64,000 nt of DNA from Abditibacterium sp. GTDB taxonomy: Bacteria > Armatimonadota > Abditibacteriia > Abditibacteriales > Abditibacteriaceae. This document shows, piece by piece, positions 14,891 through 58,600 of this stretch (position 1 is the first letter of the stretch; each line of letters begins with the position of its first letter). The DNA lies in NCBI GenBank assembly GCA_965199495.1, contig CBDASK010000003.1:4320001-4384000 (forward strand). Reading direction: 5' to 3'. The notes beneath the pieces are model-generated. The model made no database searches. It was not told the origin of the DNA and saw only the letters and a list, made by a program, of their open reading frames with translations. A program made the position numbers and the translations under genes.

Positions 14891-16093
14891 TTACGATTGT
14901 AAGAGTTCCTCGACTGCCGCGACCATCGCGCGCGCGCCCAGAAAAAGCGCGCTTTCATCGATATTAAAGCGCGGGTGATGATGGGGCCACACGGCGCCGC
15001 TGGCCTCGGCGCGACCGCCCACGAAAAAATAACAGCCGGGAATTTGTTGGAGCACCAGCGACATATCTTCAGCGCCCATCGTCGGCTCAAAAGGTTGGAC
15101 GTTGCCCGCACCCGCCACGCGCTGGAATACGGGCAACAGGCGTGCTGTGACCTCTTCGTTGTTGACCGTGGCTGGGTAGCCGGGAAAAAATTGCCACTCG
15201 CCCTGCGCGCCAAAAGCCTTTGGCAGCGTTTCCACGATCTGGCGCGCGCGTTCTTGAAGAGTCGTGCGCACCGATTCATGGAAAGAGCGCAGCGTGCCTT
15301 CCATCCGGGCTTCGCCGGGAATAACATTAAAAGCCGTTCCACTTTGGAGGCTTCCGATGGTGATAACTGCCGAGTCAAGCGGTTTGATATTTCGGGCGAC
15401 AATGGTTTGCAGCGCCCCAATGACTTGAGCAGCCACGACGATGGCGTCGGTCGTCTGCTGGGGCATCGCGCCGTGGCCACCTTTGCCGGTAATTTGGATG
15501 CGAAACTCATCGGAGGCCGCCATCACCGGGCCGGGCGCAAGGCCGATAGTGCCCGCCTCGATTTCGCTCCAGACGTGCAGGGCAAGCGCGTAGTCGGGCC
15601 GGGGGTTCTCTAATAATCCCGCGTCAATCATTTTGCCCGCGCCGCCTAAACCTTCCTCGGCGGGCTGAAACATAAATTTCACGGTGCCGTGCAGTTGCTC
15701 GCGTTTTTCTGAAAGTAGTCGGGCGACCGTAAGGCCAATGGCCATGTGGCAATCGTGGCCGCAGGCGTGCATGGCGCCGGAAGTTTTCGATTTCCATTCC
15801 CATTGAGTGTCTTCTTCGATGGGCAGGGCATCCATGTCGGCGCGCACCAGCACGCAGGGGCCACTCTGGGCGCCACGCAATAGACCGATAACGCCGGTTA
15901 CGCCAACATTTTCAGTGACTTCGTAACCTAACTCTCGTAGTCTTTGCGCGATGATGCCCGCGCTGCGAACCTCGTGATAACCCAATTCGGGGTGCGCATG
16001 AAAATCTCGTCTGAGCGCCACGATGTCCTGCTCCCACGGCAAAGAGAGGTCGGGAATTCCAGCGATATTCAATAATTCAGGGGCAAATGACAT
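14891..16093 (-). CDS. M20D amidohydrolase
   Basis: RRDFHAHPELG, RADMDALPI, MHACGHD, FQPAEEG, GGHGAMP, AEDM, HHHPRF. Confidence 0.93.
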   Translation of the reverse strand: MSFAPELLNIAGIPDLSLPWEQDIVALRRDFHAHPELGYHEVRSAGIIAQRLRELGYEVTENVGVTGVIGLLRGAQSGPCVLVRADMDALPIEEDTQWEWKSKTSGAMHACGHDCHMAIGLTVARLLSEKREQLHGTVKFMFQPAEEGLGGAGKMIDAGLLENPRPDYALALHVWSEIEAGTIGLAPGPVMAASDEFRIQITGKGGHGAMPQQTTDAIVVAAQVIGALQTIVARNIKPLDSAVITIGSLQSGTAFNVIPGEARMEGTLRSFHESVRTTLQERARQIVETLPKAFGAQGEWQFFPGYPATVNNEEVTARLLPVFQRVAGAGNVQPFEPTMGAEDMSLVLQQIPGCYFFVGGRAEASGAVWPHHHPRFNIDESALFLGARAMVAAVEELLQS

Positions 16094-16164
16094 GGGTTTT
16101 AGTTTAATTCAAAGTCACTGCCACTAAGACATCGGAATCAACGATTCAATAATAATCTGCTTAG

Positions 16165-16178
16165 TCGCTCACAATACA
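16165..16178 (+). repeat. polar 14-mer TCGCTCACAATACA, copy 3
   Basis: Exact match, intergenic, downstream of the recombinase. Confidence 0.9.
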
Positions 16179-16308
16179 AGTCCTTATATGTGATTAAAGT
16201 TTGATCTGAGACGTGAATCCTTAAAATATTCTATCAAAGTAAAATGATGGGGTATGATATGAGATGAATAGAGTAGATTGGCTGTTTTGGCTGTTGAGGA
16301 ATACGAAA

Positions 16309-17343
16309 TCACACCTCGATATCGATGAAGTTGGCCGGATTATTGGCGACCCGCGCCACCGCTTTAACGTAGAGTTCCGTTGATTCTATGTCGACATGGC
16401 CCATCGCGTCCTTGAGATGCTCGACTTTGGCACCGCCAGAAACCGAGAGAGTTCCAAACGTGTGGCGCAGGGCATGACAAGAAACTCCCACTCTTTTCAA
16501 GGAGGCTTCATTAAGGTAATAGTCAACGATTTCGTTGAGTGAACGCCGTGATATTCTTTCGCCGCGCGAGCGGTTGGAAAGTGAAATAAAACAGGCACCC
16601 TCGGCAGGAAAACCGGCTTTATGCTTGGAGACCAGGTAATCTCTGACGACGTTATAGGTATCGGGACGCAGGTATATCTGCCGCATGCGGTTCGCTTTGC
16701 CTCGCACTTCAACGGAAACCAAATCGTCCTGAATGACCACGGACTTTTCATCCATTCTTTCCACTTCGATTCTCCTCAGACCATGAATGGCCATCAGGGC
16801 GATAATCGCGCGGTCACGTTTGCCAATTAAGGTATCAACGGGAACAGCGTCCATCAAGCGCGAGAGGGCGCCCGCCGTCAAGGACTTGATCTTCTCTTCG
16901 CCCGGCGTCTGATCTTTGCCGCCGCGCACACCTACCGCCGGGTTATCCTCGCGCAATCCCGCCTCGACGGCGGAATCATAAAACCTTCTGACAATTGACA
17001 ATTTGTGCGAACGCGTATTGATACGCAAGCCCTGCTGCTTCATCTCCTCGCGATACATCTCGATGTGGATGCGCCGGGCTTGCGCCGGGTCTATGTTATG
17101 ACGGTTGCACCATTGCACCCAGAAATCAATTTCGCGGTAGTAAGCCCGAATCGTATCATCGGTGGCGTCGCCCTGCGCGATGTGAATTTGCACGAACCGT
17201 GAGAACGCGGTAAAAATATCGTCGGTCTGCTCATCATTGCCAACGACATTCGCCGTGGCTGCATCAGAGGCACGACTGGTTTTGCGCACGGGAAATTCCC
17301 TCTCGAAAGGATCGGAAAATTCGTTGGACTCTTGTTTGGGCAT
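16309..17343 (-). CDS. tyrosine recombinase, XerC/XerD-like
   Basis: SAM-like N-domain (TIRAYYREI..LSIVRRFY..DNPA) and full catalytic set: GLRRIE, GKANR, HALRH, MGH, LY. Confidence 0.93.
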   Translation of the reverse strand: MPKQESNEFSDPFEREFPVRKTSRASDAATANVVGNDEQTDDIFTAFSRFVQIHIAQGDATDDTIRAYYREIDFWVQWCNRHNIDPAQARRIHIEMYREEMKQQGLRINTRSHKLSIVRRFYDSAVEAGLREDNPAVGVRGGKDQTPGEEKIKSLTAGALSRLMDAVPVDTLIGKRDRAIIALMAIHGLRRIEVERMDEKSVVIQDDLVSVEVRGKANRMRQIYLRPDTYNVVRDYLVSKHKAGFPAEGACFISLSNRSRGERISRRSLNEIVDYYLNEASLKRVGVSCHALRHTFGTLSVSGGAKVEHLKDAMGHVDIESTELYVKAVARVANNPANFIDIEV

Positions 17344-17362
17344 AACTTAAATTATACTCGAT
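17335..17362. other. putative dif-like recombination site overlapping the recombinase start codon
   Basis: TTTGGGCATAA-CTTAAA-TTATACTCGAT: 11-6-11 layout; 15/22 arm positions identical to E. coli dif (GGTGCGCATAA-TGTATA-TTATGTTAAAT). Confidence 0.55.
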
Positions 17363-17609
17363 ACTTTCTTCCCCAATTATGGGGATAATCGGGCTTGAAT
17401 TTGAAGAACCCACAAACCAACTCAAACCAACTACGAAATTCTCAAGAAATGCTCGCTTTTGAGAAGATATAAACTAACTCGTTTTTGACATGAAAAGCTG
17501 AATGTCCAACTTTACACAATTCCCATTTTGACAGGTTGAAACTTTTGGACGTTTAAAGTTATCGGTAAAAGGAAATTGAAGTCAACTTTTTGTATTAAGC
17601 TATATTAAG

Positions 17610-18440
17610 TTGATGTCTGATTCTTTAGCGATTTCCCTGTCCCGCCAAACCTCATTTTCGTGTGGGTTGCGGTTGTGGCAGAGTTTATGGGGCAATCACA
17701 AGAACGTTGAGGTTTATGGAAAACGGTCAAGGTCTCATGGCGCTAATTTCCAGTTAAGCATCGCTTTGCGTGGCCCCGTCTCGCCCGACGACGGCATGAT
17801 CGTTAATCTGGTTGATGTTAAACCTTATTTGAATCGGCTCATTCTTCCGCTTGACCAATGCTTCCTCAACGACGACGTGGCTGAGTTTGGTTGTTGTAGT
17901 CCAACCCCCGAAAATCTCGCGCGCTACCTGTGGGATCGGATGCCCGACCACATCGGAGATGGCTCGCTTTACCGCTTGCAGTTAAAGCAACTCAACCACA
18001 CCACTGTCGAAATTCTTCCCAGCTCCATGAAGGTCTCTCGCTCCTACGAATTTGCCGCCGCGCACCGGCTGTTTACGCCCACTCTATCCTCGGAGGAAAA
18101 CTGGGCGCGCTTTGATAAATGTTCTAATCCCGCAGGCCACGGCCACAACTTTCAGTTGTCTGTTTGGGTCGAGGGCGATCCCGACCCTCAAAGTGGATTT
18201 ATTATCAACCCGCAATTGCTCGATAACATCGTCGATCAGGAAGTCTATGAAAGATTCGATCACCGACACTTAAACGAGGACTGCCCGGAATTCTTCGGCG
18301 ATGGTTTAGTTCCGACATCGGAAAATCTGGCTTTGGTTATATTCAAGTTGATGCAAAGCCGACTCTCTCAAGAAGGATACCGGCTCTCGAAAATTGGCTT
18401 ACAGGAAACGCAGAAGAATTATTTTGAGGTAGAGGCTTAA
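17610..18440 (+). CDS. tandem-domain 6-pyruvoyl-tetrahydropterin synthase (PTPS/QueD family)
   Basis: Two T-fold repeats; the second has FAAAHRL, CSNPAGHGHNF, FDHRHLN, PTSENLA, LQETQKN. Confidence 0.88.
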   Translation: MMSDSLAISLSRQTSFSCGLRLWQSLWGNHKNVEVYGKRSRSHGANFQLSIALRGPVSPDDGMIVNLVDVKPYLNRLILPLDQCFLNDDVAEFGCCSPTPENLARYLWDRMPDHIGDGSLYRLQLKQLNHTTVEILPSSMKVSRSYEFAAAHRLFTPTLSSEENWARFDKCSNPAGHGHNFQLSVWVEGDPDPQSGFIINPQLLDNIVDQEVYERFDHRHLNEDCPEFFGDGLVPTSENLALVIFKLMQSRLSQEGYRLSKIGLQETQKNYFEVEA

Positions 18441-18446
18441 ACCGCG

Positions 18447-19397
18447 ATGACACCGATTGACAACAGACAACTCAGCCTCGATTTCGATTATGACCGCGAT
18501 TTGATCGCCGACGAAGCCTATATCAACGAGTTGCCCGACCTGCAAAACGGAGCCAACGTTCAGGGCGCCTTGGTCAAGTTAGAACGCGTCGGCATTCATA
18601 ATTTTCGGCTCCCCATCAAATACCGCCAACGCGATAGCAGCGACCTACTGGAACTGGAAACATCGGTGACCGGCACAGTTTCGCTCGATTCCTGCACCAA
18701 GGGCATTAACATGAGCCGCATCATTCGCACGTTTTACGAACACCGCGAACGAGATTTTACCATTGATACATTGGCTCGCATTCTCCGCGATTACAAGCAC
18801 GGCCTTCAATCGCTGGAAGCCCAGATCATGGTGAAGTTCTCCTACCCGATCCTGCAAAATTCGCTGCGCTCGAATTTACAGGGATTTCAATATTATGATG
18901 TGGTTTTGGAAATGGAGGTGGACGCCAGCGATCAACTAAAAAAGACTTTGCACTTTGATTTCGTCTACTCTTCGGCTTGCCCCTGCTCATTCGAGTTGAG
19001 CGAACACGCCCGCAGCCACCGCAATAAAGCCACGGTGCCGCACTCACAGCGCAGCGTCGCCAGAGTCTCGGTGAAATTCGACACCATGGTCTGGATCGAA
19101 GATTTGCAGGGAATCTGCGTTCGGGCCTTGCAGACCGAAACTCAGGTTATGGTCAAACGCGAAGACGAACAGGCTTTTGCAGAACTCAACGGCTCCTACC
19201 TCAAGTTTGTCGAAGACGCCGCTCGTCTGCTTTACAGGGAATTGGATAATGACGACCGCATCCTCGATTTTAAAATTGTCTGCTCCCACTTGGAATCTCT
19301 TCACTCGCACGATGCCATCGCCGTCGTGGCCAAGGGAATTCCGGGAGGATGGACACCGGAAATCACCTACAACGAACTGAGGACGCTGATAAGGTAA
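18447..19397 (+). CDS. folE2: GTP cyclohydrolase I type IB
   Basis: LPDLQ, KGINMSRI, SSACPCS, PHSQRS, VKREDEQAFAE, FVEDAAR, ESLHSHDA. Confidence 0.95.
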   Translation: MTPIDNRQLSLDFDYDRDLIADEAYINELPDLQNGANVQGALVKLERVGIHNFRLPIKYRQRDSSDLLELETSVTGTVSLDSCTKGINMSRIIRTFYEHRERDFTIDTLARILRDYKHGLQSLEAQIMVKFSYPILQNSLRSNLQGFQYYDVVLEMEVDASDQLKKTLHFDFVYSSACPCSFELSEHARSHRNKATVPHSQRSVARVSVKFDTMVWIEDLQGICVRALQTETQVMVKREDEQAFAELNGSYLKFVEDAARLLYRELDNDDRILDFKIVCSHLESLHSHDAIAVVAKGIPGGWTPEITYNELRTLIR

Positions 19398-19433
19398 AGA
19401 AATTGTTGATTATAAGAGTTAAGCAACCCGCGC

Positions 19434-19537
19434 ACAGTTTCCCTTTACAGTTTCCCTTTACAGTTTCCCTTTACAGTTTCCCTTTACAGTTTCCCTTTAC
19501 AGTTTCCCTTTACAGTTTCCCTTTACAGTTTCCCTTT
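19434..19537 (+). repeat. perfect tandem repeat (ACAGTTTCCCTTT) x8
   Basis: Units start at 19434, 19447, 19460, 19473, 19486, 19499, 19512 and 19525. Confidence 0.97.
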
Positions 19538-19583
19538 ATTGATAACGCAATTCTCAAATGATGTGAATTACATACAACGCAAT

Positions 19584-19597
19584 TGTATTGTGAGCGA
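19584..19597 (-). repeat. polar 14-mer, copy 4 (reverse orientation)
   Basis: TGTATTGTGAGCGA on +, between convergent folE2 and gpx. Confidence 0.9.
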
Positions 19598-19611
19598 CTG
19601 GATTAATTATT

Positions 19612-19661
19612 AATGAAAGAGGGCACGTTTGGCTTTGTAGTCAAACGTGCCCTCTTTCATT
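19612..19661. terminator. bidirectional hairpin between folE2 and gpx
   Basis: 20-bp arms AATGAAAGAGGGCACGTTTG / CAAACGTGCCCTCTTTCATT. Confidence 0.7.
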
Positions 19662-19675
19662 CTTCGTCAAAAACC

Positions 19676-20296
19676 CTATTTTTGTGCGAGTTGGGTCTTG
19701 ATGGCGGTCTCTAATTCTTCGCTTTGCGGAGTGACTTTGGACTTGAAACGGTCTACTAAAGATCCATCGCGAGAAACCAAAAACTTCTCGAAATTCCAGT
19801 CTATCGGGCCGGTTTTCTTGGAGTTTGCCTCCTCGGTTAAATAGTGGAAGAAGGGAGAAATATCCTCTCCCTTAACGCTTGATTTGGCGAATAGATCGAA
19901 AGTCACGCCATAATTTTTCTGGCAGAACGCGCCGATTTCTTCGGCACTGCCCGGTTCCTGTCCCCCGAAATTGTTGGCGGGAAAACCCAAAACTTCCAAT
20001 CCCTGCGCTTTGTATGCTTCGGATAAAGCCTGCAAACCCGCGTATTGAGGCGTGTAACCGCACTTGGAGGCGGTATTCACAATGAGCAAAACTTTACCCC
20101 GGTATTTGGCCATATCCACGGGTTTGCCATCAAGGGTTTCGAGTTTGTAGTCGTATATCGTCATAGAAGCAGGTTCATCGGTGGGAGCCGTTTTTGTAGC
20201 AGAATTAGCAGCGGAGTCAGTTGCCTCAATGGAACGAGCGCTCTGGCAACCCGCAAGCAAAACTAAACCGCACAACAACAAAGGGAATTTTTTCAT
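19676..20296 (-). CDS. glutathione peroxidase-family lipoprotein
   Basis: Lipobox LLAGC; NTASKCGYTPQY, LGFPANNFGGQEPG, IDWNFEKFL. Confidence 0.93.
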   Translation of the reverse strand: MKKFPLLLCGLVLLAGCQSARSIEATDSAANSATKTAPTDEPASMTIYDYKLETLDGKPVDMAKYRGKVLLIVNTASKCGYTPQYAGLQALSEAYKAQGLEVLGFPANNFGGQEPGSAEEIGAFCQKNYGVTFDLFAKSSVKGEDISPFFHYLTEEANSKKTGPIDWNFEKFLVSRDGSLVDRFKSKVTPQSEELETAIKTQLAQK

Positions 20297-21170: not shown

Positions 21171-22055
21171 TTATGAGATAGCGGGGAGAAGGGAGAGGCG
21201 ATTAAATTTCGAGTTGCCGGCGGTGAGTAGATTGCGGCGCGCGCGGAAAAACTCCAGACGTTCGGCCCAGTCGCCATTAGTCGAGTGGAAGGGCGCATTG
21301 GAGATTTTTTCGACGAACTCGGTGATTTTGCGCGCAGACAGGGGCTTGCCCTGCCAGGGAAAACGCAGTTCAGGGCACACCAGACTGGCGACATCGGGAG
21401 CCATAGCGCTGGTTTCGAGAGGTAGGTTGAACGCATAAAGTACCTGACCCGGAAAAATAGTGCGCAGAGGCGGCGCGATCAAATGGCGGCTGTCGGCGCT
21501 CACAATTAACGATTTGGAATAGGTATAACCATCGCCGTCGGCAATTTCAAAATCAACGGCTAACCGCACAGCCACGGCGCGCCCCACAATGATAGAGTCG
21601 GGGTCATCAAGCAAAAATATCTTACGCGGCATCAACTTGAGCAGACGTAACCAGTCGCACAGCCCATCAACTCGCAAACGTAACTCCTCGTAACTCAAGG
21701 GGATTGGCTCGCCCAAAACAGGCTCAGCCACAAGAGTTGGCGAACTTAACAAGGCCGCACCATAACATACAAAATGAGCGCGCGTATACTCATCTAACGC
21801 CGGGCCAGCGGGGTTCGCGCGTGTGCTTTCCAGACGCTCCAAGCGAGAATTCAATTGCTCCAACGCCGCGTAAGCCTCGCCAGAGTTCGGCACTTCGATG
21901 ATACCCTGCCCCAACGCCCGCGCCATTGCCTCGCTCCAGGCGGCTAATCCCTCGGTCTGTTCACACAACAAAGCAGCCCAGCGCATTTGAAACGCGGGCC
22001 AGAACGCACGAACGGAAGAAGAAGAGAACACTTGAAAAAGTTTAAAAGCCACCAC
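21171..22055 (-). CDS. hypothetical protein
   Basis: 294-aa ORF filling the gap between neighbours; no motif recognised; start uncertain. Confidence 0.65.
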   Translation of the reverse strand: MVAFKLFQVFSSSSVRAFWPAFQMRWAALLCEQTEGLAAWSEAMARALGQGIIEVPNSGEAYAALEQLNSRLERLESTRANPAGPALDEYTRAHFVCYGAALLSSPTLVAEPVLGEPIPLSYEELRLRVDGLCDWLRLLKLMPRKIFLLDDPDSIIVGRAVAVRLAVDFEIADGDGYTYSKSLIVSADSRHLIAPPLRTIFPGQVLYAFNLPLETSAMAPDVASLVCPELRFPWQGKPLSARKITEFVEKISNAPFHSTNGDWAERLEFFRARRNLLTAGNSKFNRLSLLPAIS

Positions 22056-55685: not shown

Positions 55686-58600
55686 TTACTTCTTGGGCGC
55701 CGCGCACGCGAAATGGTAATCGCCCGCCTCGACCGTCAGCTTCGCAGTGCCATTTTCGTAACCCAACATTTTCACGCCCGTCGATGCAGCCACGGGCGTG
55801 CCGCCTTCGCGAATTGGCGCGTTGGCCGCGCACGGCACCATCACCGTGGCTGTTGTGTTGGCCGGAACGACGACGTGCCAACCGAACTGGCCGTTCGTGA
55901 TTTTCCAATCGCTGACGATGGTGCCATAAACCGTGTCGTGCGTGGCGCGCGCGGATGTCAAATCGCCCCAAATGTGCGGCTGGAACACGATGGTTTTAAA
56001 GCCCGGACTGCCGATTTGAATGCCCGCCAAGTATTTGGTGAACCACGCGCTGACATCGCCAAACATGACGTGATCGCGCGAGTCGTCATTGTCGTCTTTG
56101 TCCGTCCAACGTTCCCACATCGAGGTCGCGCCTTTGTCGATCCAATAACCGTAGCTCGGCATCGAACGCGTCTGCAATATCCGATAAGCCACGTCGCCAC
56201 ATCCGTTATCAGCGAGCGTGCGCAACAAGTATTTCGCGCCCAAAATTCCCACGTCCATGTGATAATCCTGATTTTTCACTTCGGCCAAAAGTGCGTTAAT
56301 CACGGCGGGCTTATTCTGTTCTTCGACCAAACCTTGATACAAAGCGCAGCTTTGCGCGGTCAGGCTGCCATTGTCGTATTTGCCGGTTTTCGCGTCGTAA
56401 AACTTCTGGTTGAACGAAACCTTAATGCGCGCCGCCTGCTCGCTGTATTTGAGCGCATCGGCATCTTTGCCCAGCAACTGCGCCATTTTACTCAGCAAAA
56501 TCGAATCGGCGTAATAGTAAGCCGTGCTGGTCAAAGCGTTCGAGGTCTGCGTCTTGGCGGGCAACCAATCGCCCAAACCGTAATCCACGATATTATCTTT
56601 GGCACGCGACGACAAATAGTTCAGGTACGAAACTAAGTGTGGATAATGTTTTTCGACAATAGTTTGGTCGCCGCGATACTGATACAAATACCAAGTAATT
56701 AACGGGTAAGCGCTGTCCCACGACGGGCCGATATTGTATCCCCAACCCGAAGTCGGAATGATGGCGGCGAAGCTGCCATCGGGGCGCTGTTCGTCGGCGA
56801 TGTCTTGGAGCCACTTCTCGTAGTTGGCGGCGCCGTCGAAATTCGTCAGCCCCAGCTCGGCGGCCAGATGCGCGTCGCCCGTCCAGCCGTTTTTCTCGCG
56901 CGTCGGGCAGTCGGTCGGAATCGAGTGCCAGTTGTTGCGATACGACCACAACGCGATGCGCTGAATATCGTTCAAAAGCGGATTGGAACTCGAAAACGTG
57001 CCCGCCTCATCGAACGCCGTGTGCATGACCAAGCCGCGAAAGTTATCAACCGTCGGCGTTCCGGGGAAGCCCTTGACTTCGACGTAACGAAAACCGTGAT
57101 AGGTAAAAAGCGGATTCCAGACTTCGCGGCCCTGACCTTTGAATGTATAAATATCGGTCTGAAACTTGGCGTCCGGGTCACGGCGCTTGAGGAACACGTC
57201 AATGTTGTTGGCGTTGAGCGTGCCGTCGGGATGCAATTTCTCGGCACAGCGCAGCGAAACCTGCGTGCCCGCCGGGCCGGTGGCTCTGAGTTCCGGCACG
57301 CCCGCGAAGTTCTGGCCCATGTCCACGATGAAAGTGCCCGGCGTCGGCTGCGTTACGGCGATTGGCGTGAGCGTTTGCGTGACTTTAATCGCGGGCGCGA
57401 TTTGCGCGCTCAAAATGCCCTTCACCGGCTCGACCGACTGGGCTTTGGCCCATTGGCTGTCGTCGTAACTCGCCGTATTCCAACCGGGCATTTCGCGTCG
57501 CGCGTCGTAGTGAGTGCCGCTCGAAATGCTGTCGAAGGTGATCGGCCCATTTGCCGCTTTCCAACCTTCGTCGCTCGAAACGGTTTGCACGCGCCCGTCT
57601 TCGTATTCGACGCGCATTTCCAACTTCATTTTGGGCCGCGCGCGCCACGAAGCCGTATCAAAATCCCACACCGACAAAACGTGATCGTCGAAATGGCCCG
57701 TGCCCAAAATCACGCCGATGGCGTTATTGCCAGCTTTAAGATAATCGGTCACATCGTGCGCCACATAAAGCGAGCGGCGGTCGTAGCGCGTCCAGCCCGG
57801 ATCTAAAACGTGATCGCCGACTTTGCGCCCGTTGAGGCTCATTTCGTAATAACCTAAACCGCAAATATAAGCCGTCGCGCGCTTGATCTTGCCACCAATT
57901 TGAAAAGTGCGGCGCAGATAAGGCGCGGGCAAACCGGGAATAATTGTATTATTGGCGATGGCGCCCCACGGCCCTTCGCCGGTCGGCGCCAGAACTTGGG
58001 CCGCGCGCCAATTGGCGTCATCGAAAGCGGCGGCGAACCAATTGGGCGTTTCTTTATCGGTAGTTTTCCACGTCGCATCGGACGAGATCGTGAGTTGCGA
58101 GCCGTCGTTCCCATACCCAACCAATTGAGCAGCCACGCCGGCTGGGTTGGGCACGTTGTCGGCGGTATCACTCGCGTTGGTAACGGCGAGGGCGATGATA
58201 TTTTCGCCGACTTTCAGATCGCGCGTCACATCAATCGCCTCGCGTTTTTGCCACCCGTTTTCGCTCTGACCCACTTCGCGTCCATTAAGATAAATTGCCG
58301 CTTTGTTGTCGGCAGCCACGCGCAGCATCGCGTTTTGGATGACGGAGAGTTGATCTTTCGACAAGTCGAATTTCTGGCGAAACCAGCGCGTGCCCACGGG
58401 CGCGGCCACTTTCGGATCGCCCGTCGTTTCGGGAAACCAGACCCACGACGCGCCTTCGAGGGTCGGCACGCGGTCATTTTCGGCGCTCGCGCCCGGCGCG
58501 GCGTAACCCAGCCAACCGCCGTGCCAATCGGCTTCTTGGAGCAAGCCCATTTGCCACGAAGCGGCCTCGCTCTGCGCCGATTGGCCGTTTGGCGCCCAAA

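Follow-up and report, generated by a model that had tools for sequence, protein, structure and literature searches.

A plasmid-related Xer recombinase beside a predicted dif site at the putative chromosome terminus of Abditibacterium

The window is a stretch of 64,000 nucleotides (C3:4,320,001-4,384,000) from the 4.72-Mb contig C3 of the Abditibacterium genome which is designated here as G000. At 16309..17343 its minus strand encodes a tyrosine recombinase of 344 aa, A1, that belongs to a non-canonical Xer clade (PF00589 and PF02899). The neighbours are a gene for an M20 amidohydrolase (14891..16093, minus strand) and, on the plus strand, a 6-pyruvoyl-tetrahydropterin synthase/QueD-like gene (17610..18440), a syntenic marker of the region, and folE2 for GTP cyclohydrolase I (18447..19397). 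The QueD/PTPS-like protein of 276 aa comprises two tandem PTPS domains, with folE2 following downstream. Around and ahead of the start of A1 are a 28-bp sequence over the start codon (17335..17362, site A), a small 6-4-6 inverted repeat (17370..17385) and a second 28-bp sequence (17509..17536, site B) that precedes the A1 start by 166 bp. The initial annotation was correct in stating that the neighbours are housekeeping genes and that a phage, ICE or tRNA-att context is absent; the only tRNA gene found, a tRNA-Val, is at 1007-1080. Further, the A1 locus displays none of the marks of a phage or ICE integrase, i.e., an arm-binding domain, a tRNA target or element genes. When G000 and G004 are compared, the folE2-queD-dif-recombinase block (14891-20296 of the window versus L086 of G004, and L083) is inverted against its flanks, and several rearrangement breakpoints in the G000/G004/L083 comparison are close to the predicted dif.

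A1 is a genuine tyrosine recombinase with core-binding and catalytic domains. The catalytic residues R190, K216, H290, R293, H316 and Y325 are intact, and these six are invariant in all 35 rows of the A1 group and in all other groups of the clade. The structure model (pLDDT 88) has the tyrosine-recombinase fold. A search of the ESM Atlas returned only generic integrase clusters. The dN/dS ratio of about 0.04-0.06 denotes strong purifying selection, and the divergence of A1 tracks that of the flanking housekeeping genes. In the trees A1 has a long stem branch, which is followed by this strong constraint. A1 is not a member of the established Xer families: it scores 64 bits against XerS (NF003462, cut-off 267) and 93 bits against XerA (NF040815, cut-off 220). 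The match to XerH is limited to the catalytic domain (E 9e-9), weaker than that to XerD, with 16% identity in the fold match.

By its sequence features the locus is the predicted chromosome-dimer-resolution (dif) region, because the polarity of KOPS flips here and because it is positioned opposite dnaA. The latter gene is at C3:2,027,426, which places the antipode about 50 kb from the locus. With origin and terminus fixed from dnaA alone, the most replichore-skewed octamer of G000 is GGGCAGGG, with 206 leading versus 19 lagging copies. We take it to fit the E. coli KOPS consensus. Its polarity reverses between C3:4,335,821 and 4,341,904; in the window the last rightward-pointing copy is at 15821..15828 (plus strand) and the first leftward-pointing one at 21904..21911 (minus strand). 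This interval of 6.1 kb encloses both site A and site B. GC skew in G000 is too weak to place or confirm the terminus. G000 encodes an FtsK with a gamma domain which, together with polar KOPS, makes up the sequence hallmarks of FtsK-dependent Xer systems. At about 2.7-2.8 Mb of contig C3, approximately 140 copies of overlapping octamers are found on one strand, which suggests a long repeat array, possibly a CRISPR.

Site B, ACTTTACACAA-TTCCCA-TTTTGACAGGT, is an 11-6-11 sequence and the predicted chromosomal dif. We hold it very probable that dif is this site, about 170 bases from site A which was noticed first, and that FtsK-guided dimer resolution would occur there. With a profile of eight sites, from which G000 and G004 had been left out, site B is ranked first on the contig with 26.8 bits, followed by 19.0 bits for the next position. 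Its core is retained upstream of the A1 orthologs in G004 and G011. Exact matches to site-B patterns are present in 12 of the 13 genomes of the genus, and the thirteenth, G011, has a variant site at the orthologous place. The pattern counts, which are partly circular because the patterns were grown stepwise from the G000/G004 matches and refined on their own hits, are 16 versus 3 for the reversed control in the genus and 22 versus 6 over all 31 genomes; the relatives that provide the homologs are kin and not independent samples. The initial annotation had proposed a dif over the start of its recombinase gene, in the style of XerS and XerH. A dif just ahead of the gene is borne out by site B, not by the site over the ATG. 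The annotation had named the right locus, but the wrong 28 bases.

The surroundings of the homologous sites were scanned for KOPS; the stretch covered round the candidates was 180-320 kb in G004, G009 and G012 and reached 80 kb at most in other relatives. In 7/7 relatives that had KOPS on either flank (G004, G009, G012, G006, G007, G010 and G011) the nearest ones converged on the site, in G009 within an interval of 2.2 kb; where KOPS were present on one side, the nearest one pointed inward (four of four relatives). The QueD-like gene adjoins the site in G000, G004, G011, L083, G007 and G008, and is 3 kb off in G006. G006 has two candidate sites, one of which is on a 6.4-kb contig with mobile-type genes and lacks KOPS support. 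Site-B homologs were not found in G016 (330 contigs) and G021 (760 contigs), two of the four genomes of a related genus, g5; in G016 the 18 kb scanned around the clade gene contain no full site. Arms of the site-B kind differ from the canonical-type dif candidates elsewhere in the phylum. Candidates for a canonical-type dif did not exceed background in G000, nor did they in G004, G009 and G012 close to the KOPS flip, and no polar half-sites were detected round dif in G000 (leading orientation 6/11 and 36/77). Viral contigs of 28-51% GC yielded 11 matches to the site pattern, which give no support to a use by phages, and phage records yielded three weak matches only. In other families of the phylum, canonical-type dif candidates are present in G027, G029, G030, G031, G034, G035, G037, G038 and G040.

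The two arms of the sites are unequally conserved: over 14 sites the information amounts to 13.3 bits in one arm versus 9.6 bits in the other. The same asymmetry has been reported for dif in many phyla (PMC3025954). In site B the arms match each other as a dyad at 7/11 positions, and 12/22 arm positions match E. coli dif. The alignment with G011 reveals a relic arm at 17405..17415 (plus strand) which matches the gene-side arm of the G011 site. It is followed by a stretch of 104 bp, 17416..17519, that is absent from G011. The gene-side arm of site B is part of this stretch, which ends where that arm meets the spacer. We infer that this stretch is possibly a recombination scar. It also holds a short direct repeat and a hairpin.

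Additional sites of related architecture were observed in other genomes. In G023 (g5) the dif is flanked in mirror image by four hybrid sites, two per side (C6:5873, 14934, 18733 and 27378; L204, L205). These, as well as a site in G019 (C126:6553, L214), combine a dif-type arm with a different, constant second arm, and one is situated in the promoter region of a recombinase gene. The hybrid sites at the G023 dif may represent scars of integration or else polar sites of the terminus.

G000 possesses three PF00589 genes: A1, a paralog termed B, and a chromosomal integron integrase (C3:4,212,290, L039) which exceeds the cut-off of TIGR02249 and is 125 kb from dif. Paralog B, at C3:3,985,147 and 352 kb from dif, is 55% identical to A1. 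Against the XerC and XerD models TIGR02224 and TIGR02225 (cut-offs 335 and 330 bits) A1 attains 125 and 129 bits and B 133 and 142 bits, and identities of A1 and B to XerC/XerD of a congener are about 23-28%. The initial annotation assumed a single recombinase; in fact G000 holds two paralogs, and the one that is preserved genus-wide is B, not A1. B is present in 13/13 genus genomes. A1 was found in three of them, and it is beside the site in all five A1 loci (G000, G004, G011, L083 and L084). In the five genomes measured, B is 113-458 kb from the site, whereas A1, or a further group of dif-linked paralogs, A2, is 0.1-4.3 kb from it.

Searches with congener XerC and XerD as queries gave no match in G000, G004, G009 and G011 (95, 92, 92 and 87% complete, respectively). 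A genome without the XerC/XerD pair had been anticipated for G000, and this was borne out; xerC is missing after trmFO, where another gene is located instead. Contig ends without overlap leave a small chance that a gap hides the pair in G000. All four of these genomes carry a second member of the new clade 0.1-2.3 kb from dif. In 9/13 genus genomes an XerC-like gene (after trmFO) and an XerD-like gene appear intact, with 279-307 bits, below the cut-off of TIGR02225. The possibility that congeners keep only XerC beside B was rejected; G005 and G006 have both genes. In g5 an XerD ortholog is found in none of four genomes, and XerC has diverged, with catalytic substitutions in two of the four. 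This genus has one chromosomal clade member, the sister of B (support 98 in two trees). In G023 a clade member is about 40 bp from dif, and the gene-site adjacency in g5 is that of G023 alone, because no site was found in G016 and G021.

Altogether, the new clade is present in 19 of 31 genomes of the class, all from one family, Abditibacteriaceae by source labels. In quick IQ-TREE and FastTree reconstructions, with long-branched outgroups and, in one tree, with proteins of <300 or >400 aa left out, B forms one group (13/13 genus genomes), and A1 (35 rows) and A2 (10 rows) form separate groups. With a good deal of confidence, these sequence comparisons indicate that the enzymes constitute a lineage-specific clade related to plasmid resolvases and that XerC/XerD have been lost from G000.

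How might this system operate? From Xer biology (PMC5357621, PMC5052618) one would expect that FtsK, steered by converging GGGCAGGG, pairs the two sister copies of site B, and that a tetramer of tyrosine recombinases then adds one crossover at site B by which chromosome dimers would be resolved. B would bind the conserved QueD-side arm, and A1 the arm next to its own gene, which varies more. We infer these assignments, as well as arm binding as such and the activation of the recombinase by FtsK. That A1 and B share site B as a pair, like XerC and XerD, is the reading which we tentatively favour, at slightly less than an even chance. It is favoured because all four genus genomes without XerC/XerD have a dif-adjacent second paralog. 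The long stem branch of A1 and its subsequent constraint argue in the same direction. Further, A1 alone differs from B in a loop and in the start of a helix which face the outer arm (the role of this helix is taken from PMC5241119), and outer bases typical of B-type arms are gone from the gene-side arm in 3/5 A1 loci. Another argument is provided by a 7.2-kb plasmid-like unit of G004, which carries the conserved arm together with a variant arm. Several observations run counter to a pair. In G000 as well as in G004, the B-type profile still accommodates both arms, and B could therefore do without A1. In the sister genus g5, with a single chromosomal clade member and no XerD ortholog, one enzyme seems to suffice. 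The intact-looking XerC and XerD of the nine genus genomes are possible actors on the sites there. Finally, A1 and B do not evolve in lockstep: from G000 to G011 the identity over the core is 95% for A1 but 81% for B.

The plasmid-like unit of G004 (C7, L206) has 7,229 bp, encodes a primase, a helicase and a PIN toxin and is present about twice in tandem. Each unit has one dif-like site; no recombinase of the clade or of the XerC/D type was matched in it. The site is a candidate for a resolution site that depends on the host Xer proteins.

Alternatively, B alone would resolve dimers as a homotetramer from a gene far from dif, as does XerL, and A1 would be an accessory, domesticated plasmid resolvase for plasmid resolution, back-up or regulation. 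We regard this as rather unlikely, yet it is the strongest competitor. B is universal in the genus, and its sister is the single g5 copy next to dif in G023. In G006, G007 and G008 the site, with the same QueD-side arm when aligned by the QueD-like gene, is in the same neighbourhood and no recombinase gene adjoins it. Both arms share an outer motif, the G019 site is nearly palindromic, single-enzyme sites can be asymmetric (PMC5241119), and xerL is >400 kb from dif (PMC9765430). In the genus, however, wherever B occurs, it is accompanied by XerC/XerD or by a second paralog linked to dif. The gene-side arm of G011, L083 and L084, in which the shared outer bases are lost, fits the B-type profile poorly, and A1 is under strong constraint and located beside the site in every A1 locus.

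The initial model, with the site corrected, would be a module of the XerS/XerH kind in which A1 alone acts on site B and B has another job. In G000 and G004 the site precedes A1 by 128-166 bp, and it is upstream also in G011, L083 and L084, just as difSL is immediately upstream of xerS (PMC1914069). This arrangement notwithstanding, A1 as the sole actor is unlikely: the same family of sites exists in genomes without A1, which most of the genus lacks, and genomes in which B is the sole member of the clade have the QueD-side arm as well.

Site A had been put forward as the dif. Its letters and coordinates were given correctly, and the start codon, CAT on the minus strand, is at 17341-17343. What was considered diagnostic turned out to be common. 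Comparison with the MG1655 record reproduces the 15/22 match to E. coli dif, but 190 positions on the contig reach at least 15/22. The core of the ATAA-N6-TTAT type is present, but it occurs in 60 copies on the contig and at 10 of 3,517 first ATGs of long ORFs. The quasi-symmetry of the arms is ordinary, since a symmetry of at least 7/11 is observed at 56,032 contig positions. The small inverted repeat is real, but one of 2,511 perfect 6-bp repeats with a 4-nt loop; it is missing from 4/4 orthologous loci and was treated as due to chance. With the lineage profile site A obtains -5.5 bits and a rank of about 120,000 on the contig, hardly the score of a unique, conserved dif. A better dif candidate, which had been named as evidence to the contrary, does exist in first-ranked site B, although no XerCD was found with it. 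The alignment of orthologous upstream regions did not show the conservation expected of a dif at site A: outer bases are kept nowhere beyond G011 and the inner TTAT in 3/5 loci.

The part of site A that is conserved among A1 loci is a TATAAT followed after 7 nt by the ATG. This -10 box (17351..17356, minus strand) keeps its spacing in 5/5 A1 loci. Leaderless-type promoters appear to be common in G000: hexamers resembling a -10 box peak 6-9 nt before the first ATGs of long ORFs, with 38-49 per position versus about 13 further upstream and a flat control. The geometry is identical to that of leaderless genes in Deinococcus deserti (PMC4007540); for site A the likeness is one of sequence spacing. 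With a -10 box 6-8 nt before the ATG at a conserved distance, site A probably combines the -10 box and the start codon of an A1 promoter of the leaderless type. A sigma-70 scan, with 3 matches versus 2.6 expected, does not list this promoter because no -35 element passes.

As a variant, site A might be an operator at which A1, or A1 with B, represses its own gene, which would be compatible with site B as dif. Such autoregulation has been speculated upon for XerS/difSL (PMC1914069). Site A overlaps the promoter, and its inner bases resemble loose gene-side arms. Half-sites or hybrid sites upstream of clade genes in eight other genomes make promoter-proximal binding in this clade plausible, and on a profile of the nine canonical-type candidates from other families the G011 copy of site A scores 20.3. 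On that same profile, however, site A of G000 scores only 10.0 (rank 491), unrelated start-codon look-alikes reach 20-24 and unrelated places in G000 up to 23.9. Further, the outer bases are not conserved, the TT before the ATG is missing in 2/5 loci and 32 close homologs show free variation of their N-terminal residues. Autorepression is not needed to explain the conservation at site A, and we consider an operator improbable.

A further proposal is that A1 and site B have remained from a mobile element, as its former integrase and attachment site, and play no housekeeping role. The plasmid-type relatives of A1, the 104-bp insert with its end at the arm/spacer junction and the local inversions are in line with this. 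It is nevertheless very doubtful, as element genes are absent nearby, the identity of A1 tracks that of the flanking housekeeping genes, the site is single-copy at the KOPS flip, and no other Xer is left in G000. That site A itself is a functional dif, inside the KOPS interval and with a better E. coli dif match (15/22) than site B (12/22), is hardly credible in view of the 190 equally good matches, the absence of a conserved counterpart outside the A1 promoter and the site-B homologs at the KOPS flip in genomes without any such promoter.

Where did these enzymes come from? A plasmid origin of the clade is likely, because of replication-initiator and par neighbours and because the best matches are plasmid genes. 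Of seven relatives examined away from dif, five directly follow a plasmid-type replication initiator gene, and par genes are in view in four. Of the named sequences, plasmid genes from Alicyclobacillus, Trichlorobacter and cyanobacteria match best, with 30-40% identity, and are closer than the solved XerD, XerH and XerA. A1 groups with plasmid copies with a support of 81 in one tree and is unresolved in another. The direction of transfer, from plasmid to chromosome, is presumed, and the root of the tree is not settled. Stages of a replacement can be discerned in the family. Most genomes of g2, g3, g4 and g6 have the canonical pair only; in g5 the new enzyme is present, XerD gone and XerC decaying; nine genus genomes combine the new enzymes with the old pair; and in four genomes the old pair is lost. 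Possibly, though we would not put it at an even chance, a clade of plasmid resolvases took over dimer resolution in Abditibacteriaceae, displaced XerC/XerD and re-invented the two-enzyme design, with B on one arm and a second plasmid-derived paralog beside dif that was recruited twice, on independent occasions, as A1 and as A2.

A2-group genes are closely followed downstream by symmetric 11-6-11 sites, at a distance of 1-4 kb from the asymmetric dif (G002:C98:20484, G003:C29:11127, G010:C5:7386 and G012:C1:6921997). Further entries of this kind are G010:C11:68205 and C12:37232, copies on two other contigs, and G005:C187. An upstream half-site at A2 loci adjoins what we take to be the end of tmRNA.

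The system shares properties with several known ones and coincides with none of them. Like XerC/XerD-dif of the E. coli and B. subtilis type, it features an 11-6-11 site of 28 bp that is located where KOPS flip, opposite the origin, unequal conservation of the arms, two paralogous recombinases and an FtsK with gamma domain. Unlike there, A1 and B are not orthologs of XerC and XerD, are 55% identical to each other, and the A1 gene is beside dif. With XerS/difSL of streptococci and lactococci and XerH/difH of Helicobacter and Campylobacter it has in common a non-canonical gene by dif and the absence of the canonical pair. In contrast, A1 is not homologous to XerS or XerH at the family level, and G000 has a second, more conserved paralog. 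As for difSL, site B is immediately upstream of the gene, but A1 is not the only Xer, and the 11-6-11 site differs from the atypical 31-bp difSL (PMC5357621). XerL/dif of Legionellales likewise comprises a distinct Xer clade with a gene up to hundreds of kb from dif, and xerL of Coxiella is plasmid-borne (PMC9765430). Identity to the sole integrase-annotated gene of the Coxiella plasmid record, presumably XerL, is 27% over 131 aa, which does not indicate orthology, and XerL sites have perfect dyad arms, whereas the dyad of site B is partial. The closest named sequences belong to plasmid tyrosine resolvases (Cre/lox-like) and to the recombinases of cyanobacterial and Alicyclobacillus plasmids. 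The likeness extends to clade members that follow replication-initiator and par genes and to the symmetric sites beside A2 genes. What sets A1 and B apart is their chromosomal location, their vertical retention and their link to a terminus site defined by KOPS. One classification of tyrosine recombinases, whose main text does not mention Armatimonadetes, points out that Xer may be substituted by other simple recombinases in certain taxa (PMC8138268). In the openly accessible main texts searched, no published Xer or dif work was found for this lineage; tables of PMC3025954 and PMC8138268 may hold related entries.

The best reading of all data is that of an independently evolved, FtsK-guided Xer system which displaced XerC/XerD. 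It would add a further independent Xer/dif system, including a KOPS motif and a predicted site, from a lineage for which the literature searched offered neither. The apparent abundance of leaderless promoters uncovers a trap: in genomes rich in them, a -10 box followed by TT-ATG mimics a dif core, and dif look-alikes at start codons are to be expected. The system is open to direct tests, since it offers a 28-bp site and two paralogs of 55% identity. For XerS, XerH and XerL an origin from mobile elements has been proposed, and in the Abditibacteriaceae clade close plasmid relatives have been found. The family may thus offer a natural series for two questions, the origin of non-canonical Xer systems and why most bacteria have two recombinases where one suffices.
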